From positions 28,274,001 to 28,334,000 of the forward strand of contig NC_087245.1 of the NCBI RefSeq assembly GCF_037042905.1: a DNA stretch of 60,000 bases, read 5' to 3'. The stretch comes from Lytechinus pictus. Lineage: Eukaryota. This document shows, piece after piece, positions 4,901-60,000 of the stretch; position 1 is the stretch's first letter, and every line of letters begins with the position of its first letter. A program made the position numbers and the translations under genes. A model generated the notes under the pieces. The model did not search any database. It was not told where the DNA came from and was given only the letters and a program-made list of their open reading frames with translations.

Positions 4901-6431
4901 CTTGAATATTACATGTTTCTGTAATTTGTGACTCTACTCACAAAAATTAATCCAACTGTAAAGGAAACGAACCAAAACCAAGGATGAGAATCAATCAGAG
5001 AAGCAAGAGTAGAATGACAATTTTTTTTTAATCGGGGCACTGTTGCATATATTTAAAAGTGAAATTTATTGAATTTCGTGCATACTTCTGGTGAATTTTT
5101 GAAAATTTTCATTAAAAAATATGGGTTTTTGATTATCAAAATTTCTGGGGGGGAAGGAACTTCCCCCCTCCCCTGCATACGGCTATGAGTGCAACATTTA
5201 GGAAGGTCCCCCAAATGCCTCAACTGAACTGCTGTGACAACTAGCACCATGCACAAGGGGTAATTAGCCCAATTGCAAACTAAGTGGGCTCAAGATACAG
5301 CTAAATATAGTTTCTAGTTTATAGCATCGCGGTCTTTGAGTCTCCTCTTATCAAAACATTCACCATACTCCATCTCTTTAAGAAGCAGACAGCTACAATA
5401 TCAAGGAACATTGCATTTTTCTTGTACCTTTTCTCATATTTTTTCTCTGAGAGGAAAGAGGAAAATACTTTTAATTTCAAGGCTGGAGTCTACATACAAT
5501 TGGTAAAGGTCCCAAATTCTAGGAATAAATGTAAACCAAACCTGTGAATATGCTTGAAAACCTTGAATAATAATCTAAATATACATGAAGGTGGTGAAAA
5601 GCACTGGTTAGGAAAATGCATGTATAAAATCAATGAGCTGAAGCCACATTAGCTTCATATAGGTCTTCTCTTTTTAGCAAGAAAAAATTACATATATTCT
5701 GAAATCATAGTTCTTTCATTTTGTATACAATCAAAACAGATTTGGGTCATTACACGCCATGTTCTGGTAAGGTATACCTGCAGGCAGATGTTCAAGAAGT
5801 GGATATCCAATTGAGTTTGTTGCCAAGGCAACACACCTAATTTGATATAACCAAATTTTGCTTGCCTTTTCAGGTTCCATCCTGTGAAATATGAATTCCC
5901 ATACTTTCCACCTTTCACTTGTAATCGTTATGATGGAGCTTTTAATATTACCACATTTCATCTAAATTTAGAAATAGTACATACAAAAAATATAATAACT
6001 TGCACAAGCAGTTTGGATTACCGGGCAAACCCATATTATGTGAACTAGCAGTTTGATCTACTCCACACTTGATCTAAAACTCTACCTAGTCTTATGCTCA
6101 TTTAGTCTAACAGCCAGTTGGTCTAATTTCTATTTCATGATTTTACACTAGGGTTTATAGACAATAGATGTGCTGGGTAATATTTCAATATCGTCAAAAT
6201 TATGTGATATTGAAAAATACTGAATATTAGCTAATGTTTTGAGTTTATGTTGACATATTGTGGTAACGTGACATGCCCAAAATATTGTCTATTCTGCAAA
6301 GTTCATCACTACTTAATGACCACAAATGCTGCTCTGTTCTGCTTTTAACAAACTCAGAAAGTTTCTTCATAAGTTGGTACTTTGGTACCAGGGTACCCGA
6401 AGGCCTGTTTTTCATGGACAAGCATGTATGA

Positions 6432-6720: not shown

Positions 6721-8419
6721 AGCCTTATTTTCATCTCCCCCTTCCCTGTTCTCACAGAATTGCAATTCATATGAATTTTCACACTAGATGATATTATCAG
6801 CGATATTTTTGCAGGGTACAATCAACTAACATTGAAATGAAATATCGACCAACACTACGTTAGATGAGCACATGCAGCAATATACCCCACACACTGATAC
6901 ATGTACAGTAGCACAATCACTCTACAAAAAAAAAAAAAATAGTGCTTTGGAAGCAATGAAACGTCATCATGATCAGTGAGATACGCCCCCACAAAAGTGT
7001 TCATGGTGAGAGTACTCAATCATGACCACTTTAACATCATTCCTGCTTCTTTTCCCGCTTCTTTTCCCAGAAAGAAGACCATAGAGGCACCCTACTGTTA
7101 TAAATGCAATAAGAAAATTCCTTTTCTTCTTCTTTCCACTGTTTCTATAACACTCCACATGGTGTATCGTAAACCACATCAGCGAAGAGTAATTTCTTCT
7201 ACATTTTTATTATTCTGACCATTTTTTCACTGTTTAATATATTCGGTTCATCTGGTTTAGTGGTAAGAGCAGAGGACTCATGATCCTGAGGTTTTTTACT
7301 TAAAATCCCCACTTTTCCATTATCTCCACTTTAACCCCCCCCCCAAAAAAAAAAAGGCAATGAAAGTCATTCCTGATGTCTACATGCCCCTCTGACCAAT
7401 GGAGACATAAAATGTTTCCTATGTAATTGGTTACACCAGCTGTCCAGACAGTCCAGCTCAGCGTTAATCAGCAAAAAGCTGTGGTGCCAAGTTCCTAAAG
7501 CAGTTACTTCAACAAAAATAGAAACAAAGTTTCCCCAAGAGGGAAAAATCAATCAAAATTTGAAGAAAAAATGTTATTTCAACAATTGATCTACTTTGTC
7601 AAATATCTCCTAGTATACTATGACCTCACAAATTTTTAAACATTCTCACTCCAATCCTTTGTTATAACAGTAAAACAAAATCAATCATGCTTCTAGCCCT
7701 CCGCATTCAAACAAATTCATCTATCATCAAAATATTTGTATGTCTCCCCAAAATTCTCATGGAAAGTTCATGAAAATAGAGACAACTTATAAAGTATACA
7801 GAATGCAAATGTTACAAAATGGTCAACCAATCCACTCAAAGAAAATTCAATAGCCATGTCTGTGTCTGTTGCAGGAACAACAGCAACTGAAGAAGTGATT
7901 TATAATTTCAGGTGAATTTGATTTGAAGGAAATGAAATCTAATATTATTGCTTTCATCAATAAATGAACAATGTTTTATTGTCAAATCAGAGGATGCTTT
8001 GTCTACTCTTTAAATCATGATTTTCAACAGCCATACAATTAAAAAAATAAAGTAGACAGCATGCTTGGAGACCTCTATGAGAAAACATGGCATACAGTAA
8101 GACTATTTTACATGTTGGCTAGATTTTTATTTTGTTGCAATTAATGATTCAATTACAACAGAATGTACACACTTGTGGGTCATTGTGGCTGCTTTGACAC
8201 TTCAATATAATTTGGTTTTTCCTGTCATTTCTAATTGAATTTTAGACCATTGCATGCATTTGCTTCAAGTCATGTTGAAACCTGCTTGAATTGCCCAGAT
8301 GCTCAACACAAACTTCAGTCACCAAATAGGGCAAATATTCTTATTAGCAGAAAATCATCTTTCTAACGTTCATTTGCATATGTTTGTTGCATGATACTCA
8401 TGATGATGACAAAAAAAAA

Positions 8420-8482
8420 AAAATTATGATAATAATAATAACAATAATAATAATAATAACAACAACAATACCCGGTAATAAC

Positions 8483-8530
<48 letters not shown>
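8420..8530 (+). repeat. (TAA/CAA)n microsatellite, insertion site of the retrotransposon pair
   Basis: Direct TAA repeats immediately 5' of element 1. Confidence 0.95.
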
Positions 8531-8532
<2 letters not shown>

Positions 8533-11500
8533 AGTCAATAATGCTGGCAAGCCTAATGACGATGCCAACGACGACCATGCTGAAGCTAATAACGATGAAG
8601 CAGATAATGACAATGTTGCTATAAACGATAACCATGGCGATGTTGTGAACAATGACACAGCTGATGATCACTATGATGCCGATATTGATGGTAAGAATGT
8701 GTATCATAAAGGCAGGAACGAAGGAGGCCAACCAAATAAAGACGGGAGAGTAGAAACGTGTGACAAGAGATTATCAAGACATCCACCCAATGCCAATGAT
8801 ACGACATGGCCAGCCAATTATAATGAAAATTCGAAGATCACAGATACACAATCGCTACACAGCAAAGTGAGGAGGAAAAGAGAAAAGAAATTATGGTCAA
8901 ATAAAGAGAAGGAAAATCTTATGACTTGCTTCTACTTTGCGACTGATGTATCTCATAAAACTAGACATTACAGGAAGAGAATGAGAGAAACGTGGCTTGT
9001 AAATAATGGTGATCCATCCGTTGGAGAGCAAGCTCTGGCAGACATGAAACAAAGTATCCTTCGTACTCAATACTTCAGCGAGATTGAATTAGAGAGAATA
9101 AAGCAAGAGGCACACATACTTTGTAGAGAAGTCAATAATGCCGGTAATGACGATACCATCGATGACCATGGGGATGCTAAGGACAGTGATCATGACAATG
9201 CCGGCACTGGTGATACCAATAATGGCCCTGATGATAATGCCGATGTTGTTGATGCCAACGATGGCCATGGTGATAGTGATGACAAAAATGCCGATGATGA
9301 TGTCATCGAGGACCATAATGATGCTGATGACAAAAATACCGGTGATGATGATGCCTACGAGATCTATGGCCATTCTGACTACAATAGTGCCAATGGTGAC
9401 GAAGCCAAAGTAGGAAAATCGATGATTCTAGACACACAATCACTACACAACAAAGTGAGAAGAAAAGGAGAAAAGAAATTATGGTCAAATAAAGAGAAGG
9501 AAAATCTTATGACTTGCTTCTACTTTGCGACTGATGTATCTCATAAAACTAGACATTACAGGAAGAGAATGAGAGAAACGTGGCTTGTAAATAATGGTGA
9601 CCCATCCATTGGAGAAGAAGGTCTAGTGGACATGAAACAAAGTATCATTAGTACTCAATACTTCAGCGACATTGAATTAGAGAGAATAAAGGAAAATGCC
9701 CAAAGTCTTTGTAGAGAACGAAAGCGTAATGCAACAAAGAATCAAGATGACAGGGGAAAACGAATAACAGATAAAGTAGACAAATTGCACGACACCAACA
9801 ATGATAGAGAGAGATCGGGAAAAGGAGAAAACTCTGTAATCACCAACACTGAGAAGGTGAGAAATTCTATCCATGATGAAGGAAGTACAGTTCCTGGAAA
9901 TACAGTGAATATATCTCTTGACGAGGGGATTATATTCAACAATCAACAGGATGTTCGGACGCAGAGTGATAGGGGCTTACGAGATGGAGAACACAACCAA
10001 AGAATATCACAAGAACAACGTATGAATCGTCTTGATATGGACAGTGCTCAGAAGAAAAAAAAGAAAGATGACTACATCGCTCAATTTGGGGCGTGTTCCT
10101 TGTCTCTTCTACAAAAACTAGATGAAATCGAAACGGTAGACACACAGATTGAGGCCGAATACCAAAGAGGAGCACATTTCTTTCAGTACTGTGACACATC
10201 TGACAACAAGCCCGCTGGTGGAGAGGGAAAGGGATCAACGATGAACAGAAGAAAAAACAGCTCTTATAAGACTGGATTCTCTTCACATGTAGACATAAAC
10301 CAGCACTTGCAACAACCTAAAGTGAAATCTCGTACTCTTCGGGTTACAGCAATAGAAAAGGCTAAGAAAAGACAAGAAATTACTGAGACTGAACATGGGG
10401 ACGATGTTGCCCATTTTATATGCGGCGGAGAGCCTCACATTCAACAAGATAAAGAATGTGAAAGGAACGTATCGGGTAATATCAAATCATCTGTACCCGA
10501 GAGAGATACGATTGTATCACAAGACTCGACAAATGAAGACAGAGATTCCGATCAACGGCTGTTATCAGCACTGAGGAGCAACTTTGAATATGTGAAGGGA
10601 ATATCAATATCAGATAGACCACAAATTCCCAAGATCGACACAAGGTGCTGTACTACTAGGAGCGTGATCGACAAAGTAGATAAAATGCTTGAAAAGGTGC
10701 AATCTAGTCCTTCCAGTTTGTTGGAGATAAACTGTCTTATCTGGGCAGGTGCAAAAACTGTGACAGAACATATGGGACTCAAGCTTCATTCATCAAACCA
10801 CTCTACCAATCATAAGAAGAAGGCTCCTGAATGGAAGAAAAGGCTACAAACTAAGATAGCAGAACTACATAAAGACGTGGCTCAACTCGGAGAAGTAGAT
10901 AAGGGAAACATCAAATCCAATCGGATGAAGAGCAATGCCAAAAGACTTCAGAATAAATATCGCATTGACGATAAGACCCGTACTAGGACAACTGTTATAG
11001 AAACGCTCAAAATGAAGATAAATGCTCTCAAACACCGTGTTAAGAGATACACAAAGAGTAACAATTTCAAACGGCAGAATAAACTCTTCCATGGAAACAG
11101 AAAGAAATTCTTTCGTGAGCTGGATTCAAAGATGACTGAGACGAAAGATGTTCCATCGGCAGATGATATGAAGAACTACTGGAAAGAACTTTGGGATAAT
11201 GATATCACTCACGAAGAAACTCCCTGGATTCAGTCGGAAGCAGACAAATGGTCCAATGTGCCAGCGCAGCAGCTAGTAGACCTGACCTTACCTGAACTAC
11301 ACAATATCATAAGGAACACTCAGAACTGGAAAAGCCCTGGACCAGATGGTGTACAAAACTTCTGGATAAAGAGGTTTGGTAGCACCCATACTAATCTACT
11401 GAAAATCATCAATGACATTATCAGAGGGAACAGGACTATTGAGAAATGGCTGCCAATTGGAAGGACCTATCTACTGTACAAAGGCAAAGACCCAAAACAA

Positions 11501-13561
11501 CCTAAGAACTATCGTCCAATCACTTGCCTTAATACTATATATAAGCTGCTGACATCAACGCTTGCCATGCACATCGAACGACACATCGATGATCATGACA
11601 TAATGGAGGTCACTCAGAAAGGTTGTCGGAAAGGAAAGAAGGGTTGTAAAGATCACCTAATGACAAATAAAGCAATAATCGGTAATGCTCGCCAAAGACA
11701 GACCAATCTATCCATGGCTTGGATAGACTACAGGAAGGCATTTGACAGCGTACCACATAGTTGGATCATCAAAGTTCTAGAGATGTATCACATCAATCCA
11801 CAAATAGTCAAGTGCATATCAGCAGGCATGAAACAATGGAGCACTACTCTTTCGCTTACGATAGGCACCCGTTCGATGACAGTGGAGGGGGTCCGAATCA
11901 AGAGAGGAATATTTCAAGGAGATTCCTTATCTCCTCTTTTATTCTGCTTAGCTCTCAATCCAGTATGCTCTCTCTTACACGCTACGAGTTATGGCTACAG
12001 ATACAAAGGGCAAGATGTATCTACGACAATAAACCATCTGATATATATGGATGATATCAAACTCTTTGCAAAAAATGACGATGAACTTCACAAGATGATA
12101 GCAGTAGTTAAACATTTCAGCGATGACATCAAGATGTCGTTTGGTATAGACAAGTGTGCCAAAGTTACACTTGTACGAGGAAGGAGGGTAAATACAGGCG
12201 ACATGTTTGTGCAAGATGAGGAAACATCAATCAAGGAACTGACTAATGATTCGACATATAAATACCTAGGCATAGCTGAGAATGATGTCATTAGCCATAA
12301 CACAATGAAGGAGAAGGCAACATCAGAATACAAAAGAAGACTCAGGCTGATCCTCAAATCCGAACTGAATGCCAAAAATAAGATTGAAGCGATCAACACT
12401 CTAGCCATTCCTGTGCTTAGATACAGTTTTGGTATTGTTAACTGGAGACTAGCTGATATATGTGGCCTAGATGTTATGACCAGAAAGCAATTAACGATGC
12501 ACAGAGTACATCACCCAAAGGCCGCAATCGAAAGGTTGTACCTTCCCCGTGATCTTGGAGGAAGAGGTCTACAACAAATTGAGATGGTCTGGAATATGGA
12601 AGCAACGAACCTCGCCAACTACCTATCCAATCCACCTGATATACTGACGAGTATATCCCTCGATTATGATAAATGTCAAGCAATATACTCCATTAACAAG
12701 CAAGCATCTATCTTATTGGCACAACATCGACTGACACTACCCTACGGTGAAAAAGAGAAGGCAAGACTTAAATGCTCCTTTCACAAGAAACTTCAAGAGC
12801 AACTTAAATCCAAGCGACTTCATGGCCACCATGAAAAACAGACGCATCGGGAGTTTGTAGACCAGAAAGACACACATCAATGGCTTAAGTCGGCGGGACT
12901 AAGAGGTGAAACTGAAGGGTTCGTCTATGCTATTCAGGACCAGGTGGTGAGGACCCGTGCCTACGAAAAATCTATCCTCAGAAGAGACACAGACGACACT
13001 TGCAGGATGTGTGGAAAAGAGACTGAAACAATCATGCATTTGGTATCAGCATGTTCGACTCTTGCTGGAACTGAGTACATCACAAGACATGACAATATTG
13101 CCAAACTTATCCATTGGCAACTACTGAAGGATCGCGGTAAAATGACTTGTGATCACGCTTGGGAACATCAGCCACAAACGATCACCACGATCAATAACAG
13201 CACCATATATTGGAACTGTGGCATACTAACGGATAGAACCATCAACTGCAACAAGCCGGACATCATCGTCAGAGACAACAACGTAGTATATATCATTGAG
13301 GTCTCTGTTCCCCATGATATCAACATTGCTGTAAAGGAAAGAGACAAACGGCTCAAGTATCAAGACCTAAGGATTGAGATCGAGAGGATGTGGAACGTGA
13401 AAGCAGAGGTCACACCAGTCATCATTGGTCACTCAGGAATGGTGAAGAAGGGAATGGAAGCCTGCATAACCAAGATCTCTCCTCACCTTCGGATGTACGA
13501 CATTCAGAAGGCAGCTATCTTGGGTACAACCAGATTGATAAGAAAGACTCTCGGACATTAG
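8531..13561 (+). CDS. Retrotransposon polyprotein: 2x Myb-like module, reverse transcriptase, CCHC zinc knuckle, restriction-like endonuclease
   Basis: WKSPGPDG, NYRPITCL, QKGCRKG, WIDYRKAFDSVPH, GIFQGDSLSPLLF, YMDD, YKYLG, CRMC-x8-H-x4-C, RHD, KPDIIV, IEVSVP, KxxKY. No stops. The ORF-track start at 8384 is a TTG in flanking DNA reading through the microsatellite; the first in-frame ATG inside the element is ~8921. Confidence 0.93.
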
Positions 13562-13703: not shown

Positions 13704-16492
13704 CAAGAGAGAAACTGCTGATAGAAACTCAGAAAGTCAACGATGTTATGAAGTTTATCAGCTCAGACAGTATTGAGGATACCAATGATCTCATATATGC
13801 TGGAGCAGTTCTGGTATTAAAACAGAGAGGTTAGGTGTAAGAAAACAGGAGAACACAAGGAAGCACTGCCTACCACCATGGAAAAGGAGACTTGATAATC
13901 AGATAAAGGGATGGAGGACAGACCTATCAAGACTGACAGAGATAAACCTTGGAAAAGCAGATATCAATGATTTTAAGTACCTTGAGGGGAAGTACAGTAT
14001 TAGAAGGAAAGGAAGGAAGATCGTCGTGGAGGAACTAAAACAAAGAATAACAAGCACTACAGCAAAAGTAAAGAGGTACACCGATCGAGTGTCACAGTAT
14101 AGACAGAATTCCTTGTTTGAGAACAACCAGAAGAGGTTCTACCAAGAAATAAATGGAAAGATGAAAGACGAAGTTCCACCACCAGATCCAGCTGAAGCAA
14201 TTGCCTTCTGGAGCAACATTTGGAGCCAACCACACAATCACAACCAAGAAGCTATGTGGTTGAAAACAACGAAAGAGGAATGTGCAAATATAGTTGCACA
14301 GGATGATCTGACGATCAACAAAAGCAAGCTAGAAAAGATCATTAGGAAAATGGCGCCATGGAAAGCTGCCGGTCCAGACGGTGTGCAAGCTTTCTGGGTT
14401 AAAAGGTTCACAAATCTTCATGAAAGGCTGAGCATGCAAATGAACGAGATTGTCGTGAATGGTAACCCCCCTAATTGGATGACAAAAGGAAGAACGGTTC
14501 TCATCCCAAAGGATCCTACCAAAGGCAACATTCCGTCAAACTACCGTCCAATTACCTGCTTGCCGATTCTCTGGAAGTTACTGACTGGCATAATATCAGA
14601 AGAAATATATCAACACCTGGACGATCAAGCCATACTACCATGGGAACAGAAGGGATGTAGAAAAGGAAGTAGAGGAACAAAAGAACAACTATGCATCGAC
14701 AAAGGAATTATGAAGGACAGCAAGAAAAGAAAAACGAACCTCGCAATGGCATGGATTGACTACAAGAAAGCATACGACATAGTTCCACACTCTTGGATCA
14801 TCGAGTCTATGGAAATGTTAGGGGTAGCAGACAATATCAGAAGGTTCCTCATTACAAGTATGACGAGATGGAGAACTAAGTTGGAAAGTAATGGTGAAGT
14901 GCTTGGAGAGGTTGGTATCAAGAGAGGAATCTTTCAGGGAGATAGTCTATCTCCATTGCTGTTTGTGATGGCAATGACACCATTAACTAAGGTACACAGA
15001 AGATCCAGGCTAGGATATGAGTTCAAGAGCAAGGCAAAAATCAACCATCTATTATACATGGACGATTTGAAGCTGTTTGGTATGACACAAAGTGACTTGG
15101 AGTCTCTCATCAACACTGTGCGGATCTTCAGCGAAGACATCGGTATGCAGTTTGGGATGGATAAATGTGCAATGATTACTCTCATGAGAGGTAAGCCAGC
15201 CAATGACAACAACTTCCAGATGCCGAACGGAGAAGAGATCAGATCAATCGAAGACGGTGGTAGCTATAAATATCTCGGAATATTAGAGGCAGATCAGTTG
15301 AAACATCAAGAAATGAAGAAGAAGATTGAGGCAGAGTATATCAGGAGAATTCGGAAGGTGCTCAAATCCAAACTAAATGCTGGAAACATGGTGAAGGCTG
15401 TTAACACTTGGGCAGTAGCCCTAGTGAGATATGCTGCTGGCATAGTTGAATGGAACAAGCTTGAACTCGAAACCCTGGACAGGAAGACAAGGAAGTTGCT
15501 AACTATGCATGGGATGTTTAACCCAAAGTCTGATGTAGATAGACTTTATGTGTCAAGAGAGAAGGGAGGACGTGGTCTGGCTGGAATAGAGGAGACTGTA
15601 AGATATGAGGAACAAAGCCTAGACTGCTATATTGAAGGCCAGATGGATAGCATCATGGCGGCAGTCGATGAGGAAAGGAAAGGATGTGACAGCCAAACAG
15701 CTGAAGGCTGATCAAAGGAAAATGAGACTGGAAGGATGGAAAGAGAAGGTGATGCACGGGCAGCATTTAAGACAGACAGAGGAGTTTGCTGGACCAGAGA
15801 GTTGGCAGTGGCTGAAACGAGGAAGTTTAAAGAAGGAGACGGAAAGTATGCTAGTTGCTGCTCAGGACCAAGCAATTAGAACAAATTACCGAAGAGCCAA
15901 AGTTGAAAAGGAGCATACATCTCCCTCATGTAGAATGTGTCATGACAAAGACGAAACGGTGTCTCATCTGGTGAGTGAATGCAGCAAAATGGCACAGACA
16001 GAGTACAAAGGAAGGCACGACAGAGTATCAGCTGCAGTTCATTGGGGTCTGGCCAAGAAGTACCATTTACCTCATGCGGAAAAATGGTACGAACATCGGG
16101 CAGAGCCTGTAGTAGAGAACGACGATGTAAAACTTTTATGGGATTTTAATATCCAGACAGACAAGGTCATTGAAGCTAGACGACCAGACATCGTTCTCTT
16201 AAAGAAGAAGGAAAAGGAATGTCTCATCATAGATATTGCGATTCCGGGAGACTGCAGAGCTTGGCGTAAAGAGGAGGAAAAGATACAGAAGTATAACGAT
16301 CTGGCATGGGAGCTGAGAAGGATATGGAAGGTGAAGACGAAGGTGGTACCAATAGTCATCGGAGCCTTAGGAACAGTGACAACAAGACACAGAAGCTTTC
16401 TGGCTGTTCTAGGAGTCGAGGTGTCCTTTGAAACGATACAGAAGGCAAGCTTGCTTGGAACAGCTCATATCTTACGGAAGGTCTTGAATTAG
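13703..16492 (+). pseudogene. Frameshifted RT-RLE polyprotein of element 2
   Basis: Segments PREKLL..DLIYAGAVLV / ERLG..PPWKRRL..WKAAGPDG..YMDD / HGQHLR..CRMC..RHD..RPDIV..DIAIP; frame changes near 13820 and 15650-15680. Confidence 0.88.
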
Positions 16493-19274: not shown

Positions 19275-19770
19275 TTAAAGCCCTGAAATCAGGGTTGGCC
19301 TAAGTTGGAAAAACTGGTGGTAAAAAATAGTATTCTTAATACAATTTTTGAGAAAAATGAAGATGCAGGGAAATACCACAAATTTACTTTTTGAGTATTT
19401 TCAGCTATTTTCTAGGTATTTTTCAAGCATACTCCCTGTTTACATATTTTATAAGTAATTCCCAGTATTTCCTACCTGGGCAAGAAATATTCAAATTTCC
19501 CTACAATCCAGTCTGAAATGACCACCGATGCCTGCCGTAGCCCGAGTGTCTATCACCCCATTGTTGAATTAATACTCATGTTGAGTGGCACAGTATGTGA
19601 GTCACCAGACTGTATGCATTGCTAATCATGAATAAACTGACTCATAATCTCGCACCTGCATCCCAACCCATTTCTAATCAAATTTCATATATACCAATAA
19701 AAAATATGAAGGCCAAATTTAGTTCTGTACACATACATTGTATGGAAAATGTATTCACTATGAACATTAA

Positions 19771-20362
19771 AGGACAAGTTCACCCCAACAAATACTAGTA
19801 GTTGATTTGAATAAAAAGAGAAAAATCCAACAAGCATAATGCTGAAAATTTCATCAAAATCAGATGTAAAATAAGAAAGTTATGACATTTCAAAGTTTTG
19901 CCTGGTCAGTATGCAAATGAGGAGACTGATGACGTCATCCACTCACTATTTCTTTTGTATTTTATTATATGAAATATTTTGATTTTCTCCTCATTGTCCA
20001 GAGAAACAAAGATTAAATCCTCCCTGAATATGTGGAATTAGCATTGTTTTAGTACCGTACTACATGTATATGGTTATTTAAAACAAGTTGGTCTTTATTG
20101 TCAAATCTGTAAAAAAAAAATGAAAAATTGTATAATTCAAACAATAAAAAATAAAAGAAATAGTGAGTGAGGGACATCATTGACTCTCTCATTTGCATAA
20201 ATTTGTGCATATCACTGTTCTGTGCAAAATATGCAAAATTTGAAATGTCATACATGTAACTTTCTTATTTTTCATCCAATTTTGATGAGATTTTCAGCGT
20301 TATGCTACTTTGATTTTTCTCTATTTATTAAAATCAACGTTTTTCTGGGATGGACTTGACCT
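19771..20362. mobile_element. Kolobok-like TTAA-flanked non-autonomous DNA transposon
   Basis: TTAA-AGGACAAGTTCACCCC ... GGGATGGACTTGACCT-TTAA; extended internal inverted similarity. Confidence 0.7.
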
Positions 20363-20862
20363 TTAATCAAAACACTATTTAATCTGGGTTTTAGGGTTAG
20401 TTTGCATGTGAAGTGAATACTAAAACAACAAAAAGCTTATGGTACAAGACAATGTGAATGTGTATGCCCTACTTATTTTACATCTTTTTTTTTTCCGATC
20501 AGGTGCCGCTCAAAATATAAAACAAAATAAAACTAGATTTTAATTCGTCATGCGGACGAATTAGGTGGTCTGTCCTTATTCTCGCCATCATGATCACTAT
20601 TACCATGTTCAAGCAGATCAATATGATCTTCATGATGACAACGGAATGTTCATTGTGGATGGAATACTTGTGAAAGACGGGAGATGATAAAGCACTGTGA
20701 AAAGGGTCTCTTTGATATATGAAAATACAAGTGATATGAAAAAAGTTATTATAATCTGTTAAATCTTGCTAAATTTTAACTTTCATACCTTTTAATTATC
20801 ATAACGGATCATGTACGAGGTGGTAAAAAGAAAAAAAAAATGAAAAAAAAAATCATCTTGTT

Positions 20863-20936
20863 CACCCCCAGGACTCGAACCTGCGCCCCCGAGAACTCAA
20901 GTCAAGTGCGTTATCCATTGAGCCACGATATTCCCC
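20863..20936 (-). pseudogene. tRNA-like (SINE-head-like) segment inside the Helentron; second copy at ~28711-28784
   Basis: GGGGAATATCGTGGCTCAATGGATAACGC...GCAGGTTCGAGTCCTG: A and B boxes present, anticodon and acceptor stems poorly paired. Confidence 0.6.
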
Positions 20937-21280
20937 ATAGAGATTACACGTTCCCATAGAGATTACACGTAAGCAAATTTGAGAATTACAAATCCAATTT
21001 TGGAAGCGAAAAACGGGCATGATCCTGACATCTGATCGAAAAATGGAGGGCACACTTCCGAAAGCTTAGAATCTCAGCTACATCATACCAAAAGCTCAGG
21101 GATAACTAACAAGAAAAAATGGAGATATAGCTCACGAAATAGAGGAATGTAGAATCTAGTTTTGAGAAAAAGTCATGTCCCATAGAGACTACACGTAAAA
21201 TGAGGAAAAATGACATGCCTCTTTTCATCGCAATTTTACACCATGATGCGTTTTTCAAAATGAAAATTCATGCTAACTGA

Positions 21281-24200
21281 TATGAGGCGCCGAATGTACC
21301 ATTATTATATAGAACAATTATTTGTTATATAATCATTATTTATTAAATAATAACTATTATTTATAAATAATTTACATTTTATTTGTAAATAACTACTATT
21401 ATATAAAATATCATTTCTAATTATTTATATATAATTCCAAGTAATACTTCATTATTTGTAAATAATAATAGTTCGACATTCCATTATTTATAAATAATGA
21501 TTATTTGTTTTTCATTATTTATAAATAATGATTATTTGTTTTTCATTATTTATAAATAATGATTATTTGTTTTTCATTATTTATAAATAATGATTATTTG
21601 TTTTTCATTATTTATATATAATGATTATTTGTTTTTCATTATTTACAAATAATGATTATTTGTTTTTCATTATTTATAAATAATGATTATTTGTTTTTCA
21701 TTATTTATAAATAATGATTATTTGTTTTTCATTATTTATAAATAATGATTATTTGTTTTTCATTATTTACAAATAATGATGATTTGTTTTTCATTATTTA
21801 TAAATAATGATTATTTGTTTTTCATTATTTATAAATAATTTGTTGAGTTTTCCATTATTTATAAATAATGATTATTTGTTAAATAATGAAAACGTCTACT
21901 TCATTATTTATAAATAATTTTTCGAGTGCACCATTATTCTCATTATTTATAAATAATCATTATTTAATGTTCGAGTTTTCCATTATTTATAAATAAAGAT
22001 TATTTGTTAAATAATGAAATATCTACTTCATTATTTATAAATAATAATTTTGTTTCAATATCCCATTATTTATAAATAATCATTATTTATAAACAATTTT
22101 TACAGTTTGCCATTATATACAAATAATCATTATTTATATACAAATAACCATTATTTATTAAATAATGCCATTATTTATTAAATAATGCCATTATTTATTA
22201 AATAATGCCATTATTTATTAAATAATGCCATTATTTATTAAATAATGGAAAACTCGCTATAACATGCAAATGTGGGACCGCCCATGATATGAATATTCAT
22301 GATGCGATTTCCTTTTTCGTGATTTTTCTTCACAAATTTTTGTCCATTTCCTCTTCATAATGACATTTCTTGAAGCAATTTTCTAGGGATATGGTCTGAT
22401 TGTAATATTCTTCATTTTCTATATAGCTTCGTCTTCGTAGAAATATCAAAAAGTGTAATTTTATACGATTTTTCCTACAGTTCACAATCCCCATAGGCGC
22501 GCGTGTACGGTAGGGACAACCGGTGAATCGACGGAGTGCTCTTCATCGAAATACTACGTTGGTTGGTCCCCGGAAGTGGCGGGCGGAATTTAGCCCGAAT
22601 CCTCGATGGAAGTCGATCAAGTGCATATGAGCTGAGAGAGTGAAATATCAGTGTACTTGTACAGGCCCTTCTACTTTTTATAAATATTTCTTGTTGCTTT
22701 TTTTGTTAAGTTAATTTTTCCTGGTGTAGAAATAAGTTTCAGTTCTAATAATGCACTTCAAATACATTTTGGAGTGTCTGTTTGAGGCGTTTGGGGCGAT
22801 TTCACCCTGGCCCCAAAATGCTCGCAACGACAATACGGGGGCATGATGACCCCTAATTTTTAAAAAACTTATTTTTCTATTGAAAATTATCACAAAATTC
22901 ACCAAAAGTGTGCACGAAAGCCTTCGTATTTCACTTTTAAAACTCCGAAAAGTGCCCAAATGACAAGCTTGGTCGCTTCGCTGTGTCGCTTTCAACTTGA
23001 GAACGTTTACGCGTCTGCTCCCCCCCCCCCCCTCCTCCGAAAGAAATTCTGTATACGGCCATGCTCTAAAGAGCCTGGCACATTGATTTATGTATACTTT
23101 CATTTTCATTATTTTTATCTCATTATCAACATGGCCTTACGCAGAATTTTTTCCAGGGGGGCCGGGGCCGGAGCATGACGCGCGTAAACTTTCTCAAAAA
23201 AATCTTGAAAGCGAGACAGCCACGGGACCAAGCCCAAATGACAAGCTTTGTCGCTTCGCTGTCTCGCTTTCAACTTGAGAACGTTTACACGCGTCTGCCC
23301 CCACCCCCCGAAAGAAATTCTGTGAACAGCCATGCTCAAAAGAGCATATGGCACATTGATTTATATGTACTTTTCATTTTCATTATTTTTATCACATTAT
23401 CATCATGGCCTTACACAGAATTTTTACCGGGGGGGGGGGGGGGGGCAGCTAGGACGCACGTAAAGTTTCTCAAAAAAATCTTGAAAGCGAGACAGCGACG
23501 TGACCAAGCTCAAATGACAAGCTTGGTCGCTTCGCTTTCTCAAGATTTTTATGAGAAAGTTTACGCGCGTCCTGCTCCCCCCCCCCCCCCCCCCCCCCGG
23601 AAAAAATTCTGCGTAAGGCCATGATGATAATGAGATAAAAATAATGAAAATGAAGTATACATAAATCAATGTGCCAGGCTCTTTAGAGCATGGCCGTATA
23701 CAGAATTTCTTTCGGAGGAGGGGGGGGGGGGCAGCTAGGACGCGCGTAAACTTTCTCATAAAAATCTTGAGAAAGCGAAGCGACCAAGCTTGTCATTTGA
23801 GCTTGGTCGCGTCGCTGTCTCGCTTTCAAGATTTTTTTGAGAAACTTTACGCGCGTCCTAGCTGCCCCCCCCCCCCCCCGGTAAAAATTCTGTGTAAGGC
23901 CATGATGATAATGTGATAAAAATAATGAAAATGAAAAGTACATATAAATCAATGTGCCATATGCTCTTTTGAGCATGGCTGTTCACAGAATTTCTTTCGG
24001 GGGGTGGGGGCAGACGCGTGTAAACGTTCTCAAGTTGAAAGCGAGACAGCGAAGCGACAAAGCTTGTCATTTGGGCTTGGTCCCGTGGCTGTCTCGCTTT
24101 CAAGATTTTTTTGAGAAAGTTTACGCGCGTCATGCTCCGGCCCCGGCCCCCCTGGAAAAAATTCTGCGTAAGGCCATGTTGATAATGAGATAAAAATAAT

Positions 24201-26009
24201 GAAAATGAAAGTATACATAAATCAATGTGCCAGGCTCTTTAGAGCATGGCCGTATACAGAATTTCTTTCGGAGGAGGGGGGGGGGGGGGAGCAGACGCGT
24301 AAACGTTTTGAAGTTGAAAGCGACACAGCGAAGCGACCAAGCTTGTCATTTGGGCACTTTTCGGAGTTTTAAAAGTGAAATACGAAGGCTTTCGTGCACA
24401 CTTTTGGTGAATTTTGTGATAATTTTCAATAGAAAAATAAGTTTTTAAAAAATTAGGGGTCATCATGCCCCCGTATTGTCGTTGCGAGCATTTTGGGGCC
24501 AGGGTGAAATCGCCCCAAACGCCTCAAACAGACACTCCAAAATGTATTTGAAGTGCATTATTAGAACTGAAACTTATTTCTACACCAGGAAAAATTAACT
24601 TAACAAAAAAAGCAACAAGAAATATTTATAAAAAGTAGAAGGGCCTGTACAAGTACACTGATATTTCACTCTCTCAGCTCATATGCACTTGATCGACTTC
24701 CATCGAGGATTCGGGCTAAATTCCGCCCGCCACTTCCGGGGACCAACCAACGTAGTATTTCGATGAAGAGCACTCCGTCGATTCACCGGTTGTCCCTACC
24801 GTACACGCGCGCCTATGGGGATTGTGAACTGTAGGAAAAATCGTATAAAATTACACTTTTTGATATTTCTACGAAGACGAAGCTATATAGAAAATGAAGA
24901 ATATTACAATCAGACCATATCCCTAGAAAATTGCTTCAAGAAATGTCATTATGAAGAGGAAATGGACAAAAATTTGTGAAGAAAAATCACGAAAAAGGAA
25001 ATCGCATCATGAATATTCATATCATGGGCGGTCCCACATTTGCATGTTATAGCGAGTTTTCCATTATTTAATAAATAATGGCATTATTTAATAAATAATG
25101 GCATTATTTAATAAATAATGGCATTATTTAATAAATAATGGTTATTTGTATATAAATAATGATTATTTGTATATAATGGCAAACTGTAAAAATTGTTTAT
25201 AAATAATGATTATTTATAAATAATGGGATATTGAAACAAAATTATTATTTATAAATAATGAAGTAGATATTTCATTATTTAACAAATAATCTTTATTTAT
25301 AAATAATGGAAAACTCGAACATTAAATAATGATTATTTATAAATAATGAGAATAATGGTGCACTCGAAAAAATTATTTATAAATAATGAAGTAGACGTTT
25401 TCATTATTTAACAAATAATCATTATTTATAAATAATGGAAAACTCAACAAATTATTTATAAATAATGAAAAACAAATAATCATTATTTATAAATAATGAA
25501 AAACAAATAATCATTATTTGTAAATAATGAAAAACAAATAATCATTATTTATAAATAATGAAAAACAAATAATCATTATTTATAAATAATGAAAAACAAA
25601 TAATCATTATTTATAAATAATGAAAAACAAATAATCATTATTTGTAAATAATGAAAAACAAATAATCATTATATATAAATAATGAAAAACAAATAATCAT
25701 TATTTATAAATAATGAAAAACAAATAATCATTATTTATAAATAATGAAAAACAAATAATCATTATTTATAAATAATGAAAAACAAATAATCATTATTTAT
25801 AAATAATGGAATGTCGAACTATTATTATTTACAAATAATGAAGTATTACTTGGAATTATATATAAATAATTAGAAATGATATTTTATATAATAGTAGTTA
25901 TTTACAAATAAAATGTAAATTATTTATAAATAATAGTTATTATTTAATAAATAATGATTATATAACAAATAATTGTTCTATATAATATTGGTACATTCGG
26001 CGCCTCATA
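21281..26009. mobile_element. Foldback-type (TU-like) element: ~2.3-kb inverted arms, ~150-bp spacer, 6-bp TSD AACTGA
   Basis: Ends TATGAGGCGCCGAATGTACC / GGTACATTCGGCGCCTCATA; AACTGA at 21275-21280 and 26010-26015; uninterrupted paralogous site at ~29090-29125. Confidence 0.9.
21482..21840. repeat. 31-bp AT-rich minisatellite in the left foldback arm (mirrored at ~25450-25810)
   Basis: Unit CATTATTTATAAATAATGATTATTTGTTTTT, about 11 copies, containing an 18-bp perfect palindrome. Confidence 0.92.
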
Positions 26010-29000
26010 AACTGACGAGAAAGAGTACATTCTAAACTACAACATATTGAAATCTGGGCGACAAATGATCAATATTCACGGAGTTATGATCAAATTTGCA
26101 TAAATTTGATGACGTCATTTTTGAAAAAATGAAATTTTCAGTTTAGGCGCAATTTTGATGACGTCATGATCAAATTGAGGGACAATGGTGACATGAAATC
26201 AAATTTACAACTCATACTCTATCGATATATGAAAAAAAAATTGGGGGTCAACGGACTATTTAAAGAGCTACAGTGAATTTTTAATAGGTATGTTTTTGCC
26301 CATATATGGCCTATAGTAAGAGCTCGCGCGCACACGTGCTGCAAAGTTTAACGGGTGTTAATTTCGTTATTAATGGTCGTAGAAGGTTGATCAAGGTATC
26401 AAATTGCTCAGAATTATATTATCAATGCAAGGATATAAAAAAAACGGCGTTTCTGCGTTGCGTTGAAGGCGTTACGCGCGGAAACGCGCGCGCATACCTG
26501 TGCGTGCGCAAATTTTTGAAATGCTTAAAATGACCTGAAACGTACTTTAATTTGGTCAAAAGGTGATTTTGAGCATTTTAAAAATTTGACGAGCGCGTAC
26601 GCGCGCGTCGTGACCTCCAGGTGACCTTTGATGACATGACCTGTTGACCCTTAACCTGAAATTGATGTGATGTTAATTTGATTGATTTTTGATAATTGAT
26701 AATGGAGATATGATCGACAATGTGATTTTACAAAATGGCGCCTGGATGACGTCATCATGACCTGATGACCTTGAAAAAGTTGATTTTACTTGAAATCATA
26801 GAGCTTGATGACTGACAGAAATTTGAAGGAAATTGACCATGTCGATTTCGAGTGAACGTGTGTACAAAAAAGTGTACGGAAGAAATAAAAATAAATAAAG
26901 AAATAAAGAATAAAGAATAAAGAAAGAAAATTCTGGCGAAATCAATAGGTGTTCTGTCATAGACAGACCACCTAATAAATAAATAAAGAATAAAGAAAGA
27001 AAATTCTAGCGAAATCAATAGGTGATCTGTCGTTGACAGACCACCTAATAAAGAAGAAAGAATTGAGCTAAAATATTTCCCATAGACTTTACACGTAAGG
27101 AAAATACGAGAATATCCAATCCAATTTTGCAAGTGAAATACGGGCATGATCCCGGCATCTGATCGAAAAAATAGGTTGACATTTTCGAAAGCTTAGAATC
27201 TCAGCTACAACATACTAAAAGCTCAGGAAAAACTGACAAGAAGAAATGGAGATATGGCTCACGAAATAGAGGGATGTCGAATCTAGTTTTGAGAAAAAGT
27301 CATGTCCCATAGAGATTACATGCAAAATGAGGAAAAATGACATGTCTTTATTATTTGCAATTTTTGAGGATGATCCGTTTATTAAAATGAAAATTAAAGG
27401 CAATAATTCAGAAGAGTAAGACTTAAGCTACAACATATCGAAAAATGGGCGAAAATTGACCAATATTCACGGAGTTAGAGCCTAATTTGCATAATTGTTA
27501 TGACGTCATAACAAGGGAAATGGATATTTTAAGTTCCGACGCCATTTTGATGATGTCATGATCGAATTGAGGGACAATGGTGACATGAAATCAAATCTAC
27601 AACTCAAATTCTATCGATATATGAAAAAAAAATGGGGGTCAACGGACTATTTAAAGAGCTACAGTGAATTTTCAATAGGCATGTTTTTGCCCATATATGG
27701 CCTATAGTGAGAGCTCGCGCGCACACGTGCAGCAAACTTTAACGGGTGTTAATTTCGTTATTAATGGTCGTAGAAGGTTGATCAAGGTATCAAATTGCTC
27801 ATAATTATATTATCAATGCAATGATATAAAACAAAACGTATTTCTGCGTTGCGTTGGAGGCGTTACGCGCGGAAACGCGCGCGCATACGTGTGCGAGCGC
27901 AAATTTTTAAAATGCTTAAAATCACCTAAAACGTACTTTACTTTGGTCAAAAAGTGATTTTGAGCATTTTAAAAATTTGACGCGCGCATACGCGCGCGTC
28001 GTGACCTCCAGGTGACCTTTGATGACATGACCTTTCGACCCTTGACCTGAAGTTGATGTGATGTTAATTTGATTGATTTTTGATAATTGATAATGGAGAT
28101 ATGATCGACAATGTGATTTTACAAAATGGCGCCTGGATGACGTCACGATGACGTGATGACCTTGAAAAAGTAGATTTTACTTGAAATCATAGGGCTTGAT
28201 GACTGACAGAAATTTGAAGGAAATTGACCATGTCGATTTCGAGTGAACGTGTGTACAAAAAAGTGTACGGAAGAAATAAAAATTCTGGCGAAATCAATAG
28301 GTGATCTGTCGTTGACAGACCACCTAATAAAGAATAAAGAATAAAGAATAAAGAAAGAAAATTCTGGCGAAATCAAGAGGTGATCTGTCATAGACAGACC
28401 ACCTAATAAAGAATAAAGAATAAAGAATAAATAAAGAAAGAAAATTCTGGCGAAATCAAGAGGTGATCTGTCATAGACAGACCACCTAATAAAGAATAAA
28501 GAATAAAGAATAAATAAAGAAAGAAAATTCTGGCGAAATCAAGAGGTGATCTGTCATAGACAGACCACCTAATAAAGAAAGAAAATTCTGGCGAAATCAA
28601 GAGGTGATCTGTCTTTGACAGACCACCTAATAAAGAAAGAAAATTCTAACGAAATCAATAAGTGATCTGTCATCGACAGACCACCTAATGAAAAAGAAAA
28701 TCACCTTGTTCACCCCCAGAACTCGAACCTGCGCCCCCGAGAACTCAAGTCAAGTGCGTTATCCATTGAGCCACGATATTCCCCATAGAGATTACACGTA
28801 AGCAAATTTGAGAATTACAAATCCAATTTTGCAAGCGAAAAACGGGCATGATCCTGGCATCTGATCGAAAAATGGAGGGCACATTCCGAAAGCTTACAAT
28901 CTCAGCTACATCATACCAAAAGCTCAGGGGTAATTAGCAAGAAAAAATGAAGATATAGCTCACGAAATAGAGGAATGTAGAATCTAGTTTTGAGAAAAAG

Positions 29001-31079
29001 TCATGTCCCATAGAGATTACACGTAAAATGAGGAAAAATGACATGCCTCTTTTCATTGCAATTTTACACCATGATGCAATTTTCAAAATGAAAATTTATG
29101 TTTATTGAAGAAAAAGAGTACATTCTAAACTACAACATATCGAAATCTGGGCGAAAAATAATCAATATTCACGGAGTTATGATCAAATTTGCATAAATTT
29201 GATGACGTCATTTTTGAAAAAATGAAATTTTCAGTTTAGGCGCAATTTTGATGACGTCATGATCGAATTGAGGGACAATGGTGACATGAAATCAAATCTA
29301 CAACTCATACTCTATCGATATATGTAAAAAATTGGGAGTCAACGGACTATTTAAAGAGCTACATGGAATTTTTAATAGGCATGTTTTTGCCCATATATGG
29401 CCTATAGTAAGAGCTCGCGCGCACACGTGCTGCAAACTTTAACGGGTGTTAATTTCGCTATTAATGGTCGTAGAAGGTTGATCAAGGTATCAAATTGCTC
29501 AGAATTATATTATCAATGCAATGATATAAAAAAAACGGCGTTTCTGCGTTGCGTTGAAGGCGTTACGCGCGGAAACGCGCGCGCATACCTGTGCGTGCGC
29601 AAATTTTTGAAATGCTTAAAATGACCTGAAACGTACTTTACTTTGATCAAAAAGTGATTTTGAGCATTTTAAAAATTTGACGCGCGCGTAAGTGCGCGTC
29701 GTGACCTTCAGGTGACCTTTGATGACATAACCTGTTGATTCTTGACCTGAAGTTGATGTGATGTTAATTTGATTGATTTTTGAAAATTGATAATGGAGAT
29801 ATGATCGACAATGTGATTTTACAAAATGGCGTCTAGATGACGTCATCATGACCTGATGACCTTGAAAAAGTTGATTTAACTTGAAATTATAGGGCTTGAT
29901 AACTGACAGAAATTTGAAGGAAATTGATCATGTCGATTTCGAGTGAACGTGTGTACAAAAAAGTGTACGGAAGAAATAAAAATAAATAAAGAATAAATAA
30001 AGAATAAAGAATAAAGAAAGAAAATTCTGGCGAAATCAATAGGTGATCTGTCATAGACAGACCACCTAAATATCTGCATATTTTGTCTTGCTCATATGAA
30101 GCCCCTTATCACGCTGTGTAATGGGTTTAAAAAATCAGGATATAGTCTTTGTCTGAAGCTTGCTAACAGCCAATTACTTAATGTGTAGTTCATTTCAGTG
30201 CTCAAATTCATGTCTATTTTCAAATTAGAATAAGAACACTAACAAGAGAGGATGCTACATTAGTTGCCAAATTCAAAATTCTAATGGCTGAAAAAGCCAA
30301 ATTTGAATTCCAGCGGCAGAAAAAACAACTAATGGCCCCTACGACTTTTGTACAATTGGAATGTTGTAATTGAGTATAATAAAAGTCTAACTCTTTACAA
30401 CTTTAGGCTTTATACAGGCCTTAACACAGGTCTCTGAATACATTTAGTGTTCCAATGATTTGATTCATAGCTCAGCATGAATTGCTAAATTTTCAACTTT
30501 TTCACCCCTTTGAATATTATCTCAAAGCAAGTACCGGTACATGTAATGTAAGTCACCAACCAATGGTCATGGGAAAATTTATTAAAAACACTAAAGCATG
30601 TACATGTACCATACCAAAAAAAGGGGGTAATCCAAACTGAGAGGGCTAAAATTCAAAGATTGTTAATATATTCAACAATTTTAATTTAGGCCTCTGAAAA
30701 TAATAGAGCAGCAACTCATCTTTTTTTTGGTATTTGTCACTCATGTACATGTACATGTTGTACCACTGACATCATGCAATACATTTAAAGCTGAAAAAGG
30801 TGAAATACAACACAGATATTTTACTTTTTCCCCCTATTTTTGGTTTACAGTGAATAGAAGCTCATTATTATGGTTAATCAGACTTGCAACTTTTTAGCCA
30901 TGCATAGTGAGAAAAATGGCTTTATCTATTAAAGTTGCCAATCTTCAAACAGAGAAATCACTCAGCTGAAGCATCAGTGAAATTGCATTTCAGTTGACGC
31001 TCTTACTTGCCCAAAATATGAATTCATACCAGTTTTCTTCATCACTGAGCATGGTATAAATATCGTAAGTTCATCTCAG

Positions 31080-31631
31080 GAAAATATTAATTTGAATCAA
31101 CAGAAAAAAAATCAGTCAAGCATTATGCTAAAAACTTCATCAAAATCAGATGCGAAATAAGACAGAACTTTTTTTTCCTTTCTAGTCACAAAACAGTAAT
31201 GAACAATTCAGTGATATATGCAAATGAGAGAGTAGCTGATGTCCCTCACTCATTTTTGTCTGTTTTTTATTGTTTGATACAATATTTCAATGTTTACAGA
31301 TTTGACGATATAATGACCAACTTGACCAAACCACAAAATGTTAAAATACATGTAATGGTAAATCGAGATGTTCAGGGAGGGATAAATCTGTTTCACATGA
31401 CATTGAAGAAAAAATTAAAATATTTCACATCTATAGAAAAGATGTACTGAGTGGGTGACTTCATCAGTCCCTCAATTGCATTTCGACCAGGATGTGTTTT
31501 GTGAAATTAAGCAAGACTTTAAAACGTCGTAACTTTCTTTAATATTCAACATCCCATTTTTATGAAATTTTCATTGTTATGCTTGTTGGATTTCTGTCCT
31601 AACTTTTGGTGAGGGTGGACTTGTCCTTTAA
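31080..31631. mobile_element. Degenerate copy of the Kolobok-like element at 19771-20362
   Basis: Shared TTCATCAAAATCAGATG, ATGCAAATGAG..CTGATG..CCTCACT and right end GGGTGGACTTGTCCT-TTAA. Confidence 0.6.
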
Positions 31632-40280: not shown

Positions 40281-40350
40281 CTATGGAATCAGGAACAGGG
40301 AGGTGGTAACCTTCGTCAAGAGGCTGCATTCTAAAGGAGGTGGCTACTGA
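40281..40350 (+). CDS. SNRNP25: SNRNP25 coding exon 4 (stop)
   Basis: (D)YGIRNREVVTFVKRLHSKGGGY*; polypyrimidine tract plus CAG acceptor. Confidence 0.92.
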
Positions 40351-41470
40351 TCATATCAGGACCATGCCAAAGGCTTCCAATAGCAGAGAGTCCGAAGCGC
40401 AGCCATGGCCTAAACAGATGATCATATCAGTGTCATGATCAGGTTCTAGTAGCAGAGAGTCTGAAGCGCATCTATGACTAACCTAAATGGTTGATCGTAT
40501 TAGGATCATGCCAAATGGTTCCAATAGCAGAGAGTCCGAAGCGCAGCCATGGCCTAAACAGATGATCATATCAGTGTCATGATCAGGTTCCAGTAGCAGA
40601 GAGTCTGAAGCGCATCTATGACTAACCTAAATGGTTGATCGTATTAGGATCATGCCAAATGGTTCCAATAGCAGAGAGTCCGAAGCGCAGCCATGGCCTA
40701 AACAGATGATCATATCAGTGTCATGATCAGGTTCCAGTAGCAGAGAGTCTGAAGCGCATCTATGACTAACCTAAATGGTTGATCGTATTAGGATCATGCC
40801 AAATGGTTCCAATAGCAGAGAGTCCGAAGCGCAGCCATTGCCTAAACAGATGATCATATCAGTGTCATGATCAGGTTCCAGTAGCAGAGAGTCTGAAGCG
40901 CATCTATGACTAACCTAAATGGTTGATCGTATTAGGATCATGCCAAAGGGTTCCAATAGCAGAGAGTCCGAAGCGCAGCCATGGCCTAAACTGATGATCA
41001 GGTTCCAGTAGCAGAGAGTCTGAAGCGCATCTATGACTAACCTAAATGGTTGATCGTATCAGGATCATGCCAATGGGTTCCAATTGTGGAGAGTCTAAAG
41101 TGCAGTCATTGCCTGAACAGTTTATCATATTAGGATCATACTGAAGGGTTCCAATAGCAGAGAGTCGAGGAAGCACAGCAGTAGTCTGAATGGTTGATCG
41201 TATCAGGATCATGCCGAAGGGTTCCAATAGCAGAGGGTTTGAGGAAGCGCAACAGTGGTCTAATTAACGGTTGATCGTATCAAGATCATGCTAAAGGTTC
41301 CAATAGCAGAGGTTTTCAAGAAGTGCAGACAGAACAGTCAATCATATCACGATCATGCAGAAGGGTTCCAATAGTAGAAAACCAAAGCACAACTATGGCC
41401 TGAACAGTTGATCACATCAGTATTATTCTGAAAGGTTCCAATAGCAGACAGTCGAAGTAAGTGCAGCCAA
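40348..41470 (+). repeat. 144-bp dimeric tandem repeat (~70+74-bp related monomers) in the SNRNP25 3' UTR
   Basis: CCAATAGCAGAGAGTCCG recurs at 40377, 40521, 40665, 40809, 40953; diverged monomers continue to ~41470. Confidence 0.93.
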
Positions 41471-58104: not shown

Positions 58105-58390
58105 GAACATCGATTCGGCGCCCCTTAGTAAAACATCAATTCGTGCCCAAATGTCGAACATATAAATTCGACCCCCTAAGTAAAACATCAACTCGACACC
58201 CTAAGGTCAAACATCGATTCGGCGCCTCCATAGGTTGAAGATCAATTCGGCGTTCCATATGTCGAACATCGATTCGGCGCCCCTAAGTAAAACAAATTCG
58301 GTCCCCCTTCCATGTCCAAAATCAATTCGGCGCCCTTAGGTAAAACATCAGTTTGGCGCCCCTAGGTCGAACATCAATTCGACGCCCCCT
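58105..58390. repeat. ~37-bp minisatellite
   Basis: Recurrent AACATCGATTCGGCGCCCCTAAGT variants. Confidence 0.85.
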
Positions 58391-58853: not shown

Positions 58854-59185
58854 TATATCATACTGTTTGAACTGAAATTCATTGAGAGTTAATTTTCTAT
58901 AAAGTTCGAGTGAAACACCAAAATTCAAATAGTTAGAATCAATTCTAGCATGTCTTGAGTGAAAATATGTATTTCAAAACAAAACCAATTACAATTCACT
59001 ATATGTATTGTACCCTGTTTTTTAAGAGATGTGGAAAAATGGAATTTGAATTTGAACTCTTCCTTTTTGTCTTTGTAATAATCCCTCGAGAGCTATAGAA
59101 CTAACGCATCCACACCCACATGCGCACTTACAGGCACACAACCCACGCACCCTCTCACACACACCCACACACAAATTCAACTGAC

Positions 59186-59437
59186 CGTTCACTTCGACCT
59201 GAAACTCGCATGTTGCTACATTGCCTCTGCTGTCTGTGGCCCTGTATTGGATGACATATATTCCTATGGCTAGAACATCACCAGGGTTGATGTCTGATTG
59301 CACAGCGAGGGGACCGTCTGCCGTATCGGTTGCCGTGATGTCATCCCAGGTGACAGCGGCGGAAGCGGCTCCAGTCGGGGTCGAGAAAACCAGTGAACCG
59401 TTTGGACAGTTTAAGATTTCAGGAACCTCCGAATCGA
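59186..59437 (-). CDS. HYR domain exon (gene continues beyond the window)
   Basis: DSEVPEILNCP...VTWDDITATDTADG...YRATDSRGNVATCEFQVEVN; 252 nt, phase 1-1. Confidence 0.9.
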
Positions 59438-60000
59438 CTGTGAATGAAAATAATCGTTTAATGTAATCACTGTAACTATATTACCAAGGAGTTTTAACCC
59501 TTTTATCTAATCTTTTTTTTTTGATGGATGGGGGACTTCAATTTGTTGTATTTGAAATGTGATCTGTCTAGGGAAATATATTGTTGAAAGAATCAAATAA
59601 ATAAATAGGATATTGAACATGTTTGAACGTGAAAAGACAGATGTCACCATTTTATTTTCATCTCTAGGAATAGCCTATATATTCTTTCAAATTACTGAAT
59701 ATTGTTTTGGGACTTTTTCATGCATAAAGGAAACTTAACACAAACTCGACACTTTGGTGGGATGGGGCATGGACCAATTACTCTGGGATTTGGTCACAAT
59801 GTACTTCTTATTGCGGATCATCACCAACATGCAGACAAAGTGCCCACCAGCTAATCCAAATTGAGTTAAAGAATTTTAAGTTTATCATCAATTTGGTCAT
59901 TTACATTATTATGTTTGAGAATAAATTCCTACATACCATCCCTGCAATCAAATGATAAAAGTAATATATAGTGCACATATAGTGTGTCCGCCCTCCTCGC

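Follow-up and report, generated by a model that had tools for sequence, protein, structure and literature searches.

The DNA transposons of the IS3EU and GingerRoot groups, which form one lineage with 45 Repbase families in 2022 (PMC10045372), are known mainly from database entries and are recognised by the signature of their ends: complete IS3EU families without exception end in TA..TA and usually have target site duplications (TSDs) of 6 bp (PMC10045372), 72 of 77 GingerRoot copies are TA..TA and 72 have 6-bp TSDs (PMC6839031), and the ends of fungal IS3EU elements read TAYGG (PMC12730594). The group occurs in marine invertebrates, as shown by the Repbase names and by IS3EU rows in repeat tables published with two sea-urchin genomes. 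Here we describe a 4,729-bp palindromic element from Lytechinus pictus that shares the TA..TA termini, the TAYG start and the 6-bp TSD of this group and is built as a foldback transposon. It lies in a 60,000-nucleotide stretch of contig NC_087245.1 (assembly GCF_037042905.1, positions 28,274,001 to 28,334,000); this whole stretch is called the window, and all positions below are counted within it. We think it probable that the element is a young, non-autonomous, foldback-built cut-and-paste transposon, moved in trans by an integrase-like DDE transposase of the IS3EU/GingerRoot kind that is encoded elsewhere in the genome.

Modular arms are a feature of the foldback-structured TU elements of sea urchins. 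Drosophila FB, Tetris (PMC4079207) and the nematode element Tm1 (PMC3169594) also resemble our element in being non-coding and in having long, modular arms divided into an outer domain of tandem repeats and an inner one, and several lineages can acquire the foldback build independently of one another (PMC4079207). Most foldback elements, however, are Mutator-type with TSDs of about 9 bp (8-10 bp in 45 of 53 cases for Tm1; PMC3169594), and they keep a middle domain, whereas the middle of the element described here is one more copy of a repeat of its own arms.

Two further systems bear on how such arms might come about. Galileo, of the P superfamily, has terminal inverted repeats (TIRs) that are long and internally repetitive, that can be extended by the copying of internal sequence and in which the repeats are transposase sites (PMC3573991, PMC3688188); it differs in its 7-bp TSD and its THAP transposase, for which there was no match in the scanned frames of our element. 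In yeast, fold-back priming yields inverted duplications whose axis lies on a pre-existing imperfect inverted repeat and which are copied faithfully outward from it (PMC10622511, PMC7467729), but these are chromosome rearrangements seeded by repeats of 5-11 bp, whereas here the seed is an imperfect repeat of ~110 bp within a mobile element, and what results carries a transposon end on either side. A foldback-built member of IS3EU was not found described in the literature searched, a search with most subscription papers and Repbase Reports outside its scope.

Extent and ends of the element

The element occupies positions 21281-26009 and has TAT..ATA ends, its terminal bases being TATGA and the terminal sequence of both ends TATGAGGCGCC. 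The two arms, 21281-23573 and 23737-26009, are identical at 2264 of 2271 aligned columns; the differences comprise 4 indels (1, 20, 1 and 2 bp) and 7 substitutions, and the 20-bp indel is an additional unit of a 20-bp tandem array in the left arm. An earlier note on this DNA, made by inspection of the letters, had described a near-perfect palindrome with few differences between its arms, among them five versus four copies of a 20-bp unit, and the arm comparison agrees with it on both counts; the ~150 bp that the note had set aside as a spacer proved to be not unique DNA but part of a core repeat unit. No coding region was recognised in the element by the scans described below, and the element, with its long TIRs, its outer tandem-repeat and inner domains and its lack of recognised coding capacity, is a foldback element in structure.

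The hexamer AACTGA stands directly outside each end on the forward strand, at 21275-21280 on the left and at 26010-26015 on the right. When 49 pairs of end points around the termini were compared, the longest flanking direct repeat was 6 bp and fell at the pair 21281/26009; at the base frequencies of the window, one 6-base match of the flanks is expected by chance with a probability of ~4e-4.

The insertion and its empty site

The host of the element is a ~1.4-kb repeat with three copies close to one another, at 20839-26975 (the copy interrupted by the element), 27062-28406 and 28687-30069. The host sequence to the left of the insertion (20839-21280, forward strand) is 91% like 28687-29108, and that to the right (26016-26975, forward strand) is 96% like 29106-30069; the two flanks are therefore collinear with the uninterrupted paralog at 28687-30069 (forward strand), in which the empty site lies near 29103-29108. 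Joined with a single AACTGA, the flanks align without a gap to this paralog near 29080-29125, which confirms the earlier report of a paralogous host block without the insert. Over TSD lengths of 0-10, the scores of such alignments do not single out 6 bp (192, with 8 bp scoring 193). Nor is the second paralog, near 27.4 kb, informative as to TSD length.

Contigs from 4 of 24 sequencing runs (X1, X2, X9 and X12) were aligned to the left junction of the insertion (20600-21470). An empty site with one AACTGA was present in the contigs of two of the four runs: one X1 contig follows the left flank up to 21280 with 2 differences and then matches 30 of 30 letters of 26016-26045, and two X2 contigs follow the left flank and then match 28 of those 30 letters. 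In the same two runs, one contig each carries the element terminus beside a foreign flank, while one X9 contig has 21281 as its very first position and many X12 contigs match the terminus at 90-95%. The empty-site contigs most likely represent the empty allele, a near-identical paralog elsewhere being the alternative source because the host is a repeat. Together, the empty-site contigs and the termini beside foreign flanks indicate that the TSD is 6 bp, that the insertion looks, and probably is, polymorphic, and that the element family occupies other genomic sites. The duplication of AACTGA that the earlier note had reported is thus found on both sides of the element and is reduced to one copy where the element is missing.

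Could the palindrome nevertheless be an artefact of assembly or of long reads that fold back on themselves? Such artefacts do occur in long reads (PMC12870357), and in this comparison, which covers the left junction, the filled junction is spanned by none of the contigs listed for the four runs. On the other hand, the arms carry the substitutions and indels given above, the two flanks are unlike each other and collinear with one paralog, the terminus lies beside other flanks in independent runs, and a read that folded back would also have mirrored the flank. Given that neither the two arms nor the two flanks are identical and that a TSD brackets the element, we consider an artefact highly improbable.

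Some observations on the contigs and on the host repeat may be added. The X2 contigs reach no further than about 70 bp into the terminus and leave 21355-21470 uncovered, for which relatives that share just the extreme end, or a loss of AT-rich sequence, are possible reasons. The terminal 20-mer of the element had no match in viral contigs and one match in metagenome contigs, which was set aside as chance since agreement falls to 16 bases in the 60 that follow. Each copy of the host repeat, which we take to be Helentron/DINE-like, terminates in a short hairpin and an AATAAAG microsatellite that is tandemly amplified with periods of 58-83 bp. Two of the copies start with a tRNA-like stretch on the reverse strand (20860-20930 and 28710-28780) that has A-box- and B-box-like words and is possibly the head of a short interspersed element (SINE), and neither stretch was called by ARAGORN or Rfam.

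Anatomy of the arms

In each arm, the outer ~970 bp (21281-22250 on the left, forward strand; 25060-26009 on the right, reverse strand) have 14% GC and are made of one 9-bp half-site, which occurs 43 times in the left and 41 times in the right outer domain versus 3 times in the 55 kb outside the element. Pairs of half-sites make a perfect 18-bp palindrome, with 9 exact copies per arm and, in the left outer domain, 21 copies within 2 mismatches. In the left arm these lie in a 31-bp tandem array of 14 copies (21448-21880, forward strand), each with the 18-bp palindrome or a variant of it, and in the 20-bp tandem array (22108-22247, forward strand), which carries a variant of the same motif and has one unit more than its counterpart; the right outer domain holds both arrays and the right terminus. 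From this organisation we infer that the half-site array is a candidate transposase-binding array.

The inner domain of ~700 bp (22251-22953, forward strand, with its mirror at 24356-25059, reverse strand) is non-tandem and has a CpG-rich patch at ~22450-22650. Its stretch 22863-22941 is 80% like positions 5052-5130 of the window, so that the inner domain is in part a piece of another dispersed repeat. Far from the element, a 26-bp tandem array at 58106-58388 contains bases 4-13 of the terminus once exactly and twice with 1 mismatch, and these copies may be there by chance or may be a related binding word; the terminal 14-mer itself has no further full copy in the window, with one 2-mismatch match at 58114.

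The scans for coding and RNA features covered different parts of the locus. Pfam was compared with 14 stop-free frames, out of 42 in the stretch 22240-23660, and none of the 14 reached the curated cut-off, the best (E 0.0016) being of low complexity; there was no THAP or integrase match among them. Four short IS3EU-like motif patterns, run in six frames, had no match in the element and 2 stray single matches elsewhere. Rfam at the gathering threshold gave 0 matches over 19500-31000, and ARAGORN gave 0 genes in the window by default and 8 weak calls at a lowered threshold, none of them in the element.

The centre of the palindrome

The core consists of five units of ~275 bp, each a loose palindrome of the kind seen in MITEs (miniature inverted-repeat transposable elements), with a self-complementarity of ~67-68%: two tandem units, L1 and L2 (22954-23518, forward strand), their mirror units, R2 and R1 (23792-24355, reverse strand), and a central unit (23508-23802) that holds the symmetry axis and to which the middle 163 bp (23574-23736) belong. 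Neighbouring units are ~90% alike (235 of 259 positions identical for L1 and L2), whereas mirror units are 99% alike (266 of 268 for L1 and R1, 263 of 265 for the other pair); the array is therefore older than the symmetry, or else the symmetry is actively kept.

The outer 66 bp of the central unit are perfectly mirrored, including variants absent from all other units, and mirror identity ends at 23573/23737, beside C/G runs (23577-23598 and 23720-23731). Inside this boundary, the left half of the central unit is of the 3' type and the right half of the 5' type of an ordinary unit, and its inner part is the unit's own imperfect inverted repeat, which encloses a 65-bp AT-rich loop (23624-23688) identical to the L1 spacer at 64 of 65 positions. 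The 295-base centre folds at -123.8 kcal/mol (DNA parameters, without a shuffle control). With an imperfect middle of 163 bp, cruciform extrusion from duplex DNA would be less likely than the formation of hairpins in single strands.

A mirror that stops at the C/G run of the central unit is what copying of one end by fold-back or template switch predicts, and we lean towards such an event at the C/G runs of the core unit as the origin of the centre. The other course, which we hold possible but a good deal less probable, assumes the same element and superfamily and has old, long TIRs grow inward stepwise, kept alike by conversion between the arms in the manner of TIR extension in Galileo, where repair from the other TIR gives the order TIR1-F1-F1-TIR2 (PMC3573991); on that course the 99.7% identity of the arms would not date the palindrome. 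A weak hint in its favour is that the terminus contigs of X1 and X9 are each unlike both window arms at 21366, as if copies varied more than the arms within a copy, but contigs drop variants and these two may merge two arms. Stepwise growth is also hard to square with the single sharp boundary at the C/G run and with arms that have no gradient of divergence along their 2.3 kb.

Superfamily of the element

The element can be classified, because TA..TA ends and a 6-bp TSD (here seen for one insertion) are the published IS3EU/GingerRoot signature, and we are fairly confident that it belongs to this superfamily. Repbase classes non-autonomous elements by their ends and TSD (PMC4455052), and the end TATGA fits four of the five bases of the fungal TAYGG, at a boundary backed by contigs that stop or begin at 21280/21281. 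The earlier note had overlooked the signature when it proposed a possibly unclassified family; its picture of an insertion that is young, non-autonomous and foldback in structure, with a TSD of 6 bp, is supported.

Among the other superfamilies considered, the Mutator-type foldback elements (FB, Tm1, TU), with TSDs of 8-10 bp, were rejected on the empty site and on a flanking repeat of 6 bp at the most, and Galileo and the P elements, with TSDs of 7-8 bp, on the 6-bp TSD. Galileo and P ends are CA..TG, and those of the element are TA..TA.

The ends of hAT elements can start with TA, which would suit a non-autonomous hAT6 element of the hAT lineage, but they are usually CAG or TAG. The 6-bp TSD that hAT6 makes (PMC12730594) fits the element as well, and in both of the sea-urchin repeat tables hAT greatly exceeds IS3EU in abundance; the end TATG, however, matches the TAYG of IS3EU, and an assignment to hAT6 seems to us unlikely. 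We give the same low weight to a gene-less satellite of a Polinton/Maverick, of Ginger2 or of another integrase-type element with a 6-bp TSD, or to an undescribed superfamily. The 6-bp TSD is common to the named groups, but Polinton ends begin with AG and Ginger ends are TG..CA (PMC6839031), and both Polinton/Maverick and Ginger1/Ginger2 were rejected on the TA..TA termini of the element.

Other features of the window

Upstream of the host repeat lie two adjacent non-long-terminal-repeat (non-LTR) retrotransposons on the forward strand, at 8348-13561 and 13789-16492. One has an open frame of 1737 codons with a reverse transcriptase (Pfam RVT_1, E 3.6e-29), and the reverse transcriptase element that is second is split across two frames; AAT-type microsatellites at 8429, 13659 and 16619 separate and flank the two. 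We take them to resemble elements of the R4/Dong or NeSL type, which target microsatellites and have a C-terminal restriction-like nuclease. A loose palindrome of ~600 bp at 19766-20367, 66% self-complementary, has a 69% relative in the opposite orientation at 31067-31593, and the two represent an old, decayed MITE-like repeat. An array with nested periods of 73, 144 and 288 bp and up to 98% matches occupies 40348-41457, and an exon-like frame with an HYR domain (Pfam E 3.2e-16) lies on the reverse strand at 59022-59480. Together, the reverse transcriptase elements and the HYR frame make the surroundings of the element animal-type in character.

Discussion

If the element is mobilised as we suppose, the transposase would bind its ends, with the help of the 18-bp palindromes arrayed over the outer ~970 bp, would cut at TA and would insert the element with a 6-bp stagger. 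The two copies of one end would stem from a single end that was copied back on itself: a strand would fold at the loose hairpin of the ~275-bp core unit, pair by way of the C/G runs and be extended, most plausibly during break repair after excision. Such an event would keep the old, imperfect hairpin at the centre and surround it with near-perfect symmetry.

Several points weigh against this account of the element, in addition to the left junction that no listed contig bridges in its filled state. The TSD length is established for one insertion only, and 6-bp TSDs are also made by hAT6, Ginger2, Polinton and some long terminal repeat (LTR) elements (PMC6839031, PMC12730594). The TIRs of the group are short, more than 30 bp in fungi and 100-150 bp in GingerRoot (PMC6839031), often with a transposase, whereas our element is nearly all TIR, with 2.3 kb per arm and no gene recognised. 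The assignment to IS3EU is based on the end signature and the TSD, while the rule of Repbase asks for an alignment of the 11 terminal bases to those of a known member, with 1 mismatch (PMC4455052). Neither the motif patterns nor the scanned Pfam frames revealed a transposase in the element, as is to be expected of a non-autonomous copy, and none was linked to it. Finally, the same central pattern could come from conversion that is still going on between old arms.

Nothing is overturned by the element, as the foldback build was already known from several superfamilies. Since this copy looks both polymorphic and young, it offers an insertion that can be tested by the polymerase chain reaction (PCR), a motif that is a candidate for transposase binding and a record in which the formation of its palindrome can be read. 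More tentatively, and with rather less than even confidence, we suggest that IS3EU/GingerRoot elements in this genome become mobile palindromes in one step, in which a captured hairpin seeds the fold-back of one end, and that the two-ended product is still transposed and segregating in populations. If this is true, captured MITE-like hairpins would be a general trigger for the formation of foldback elements, and the 9-bp half-site, of which each arm has ~40 copies, would be the first candidate for the binding site of an IS3EU transposase.

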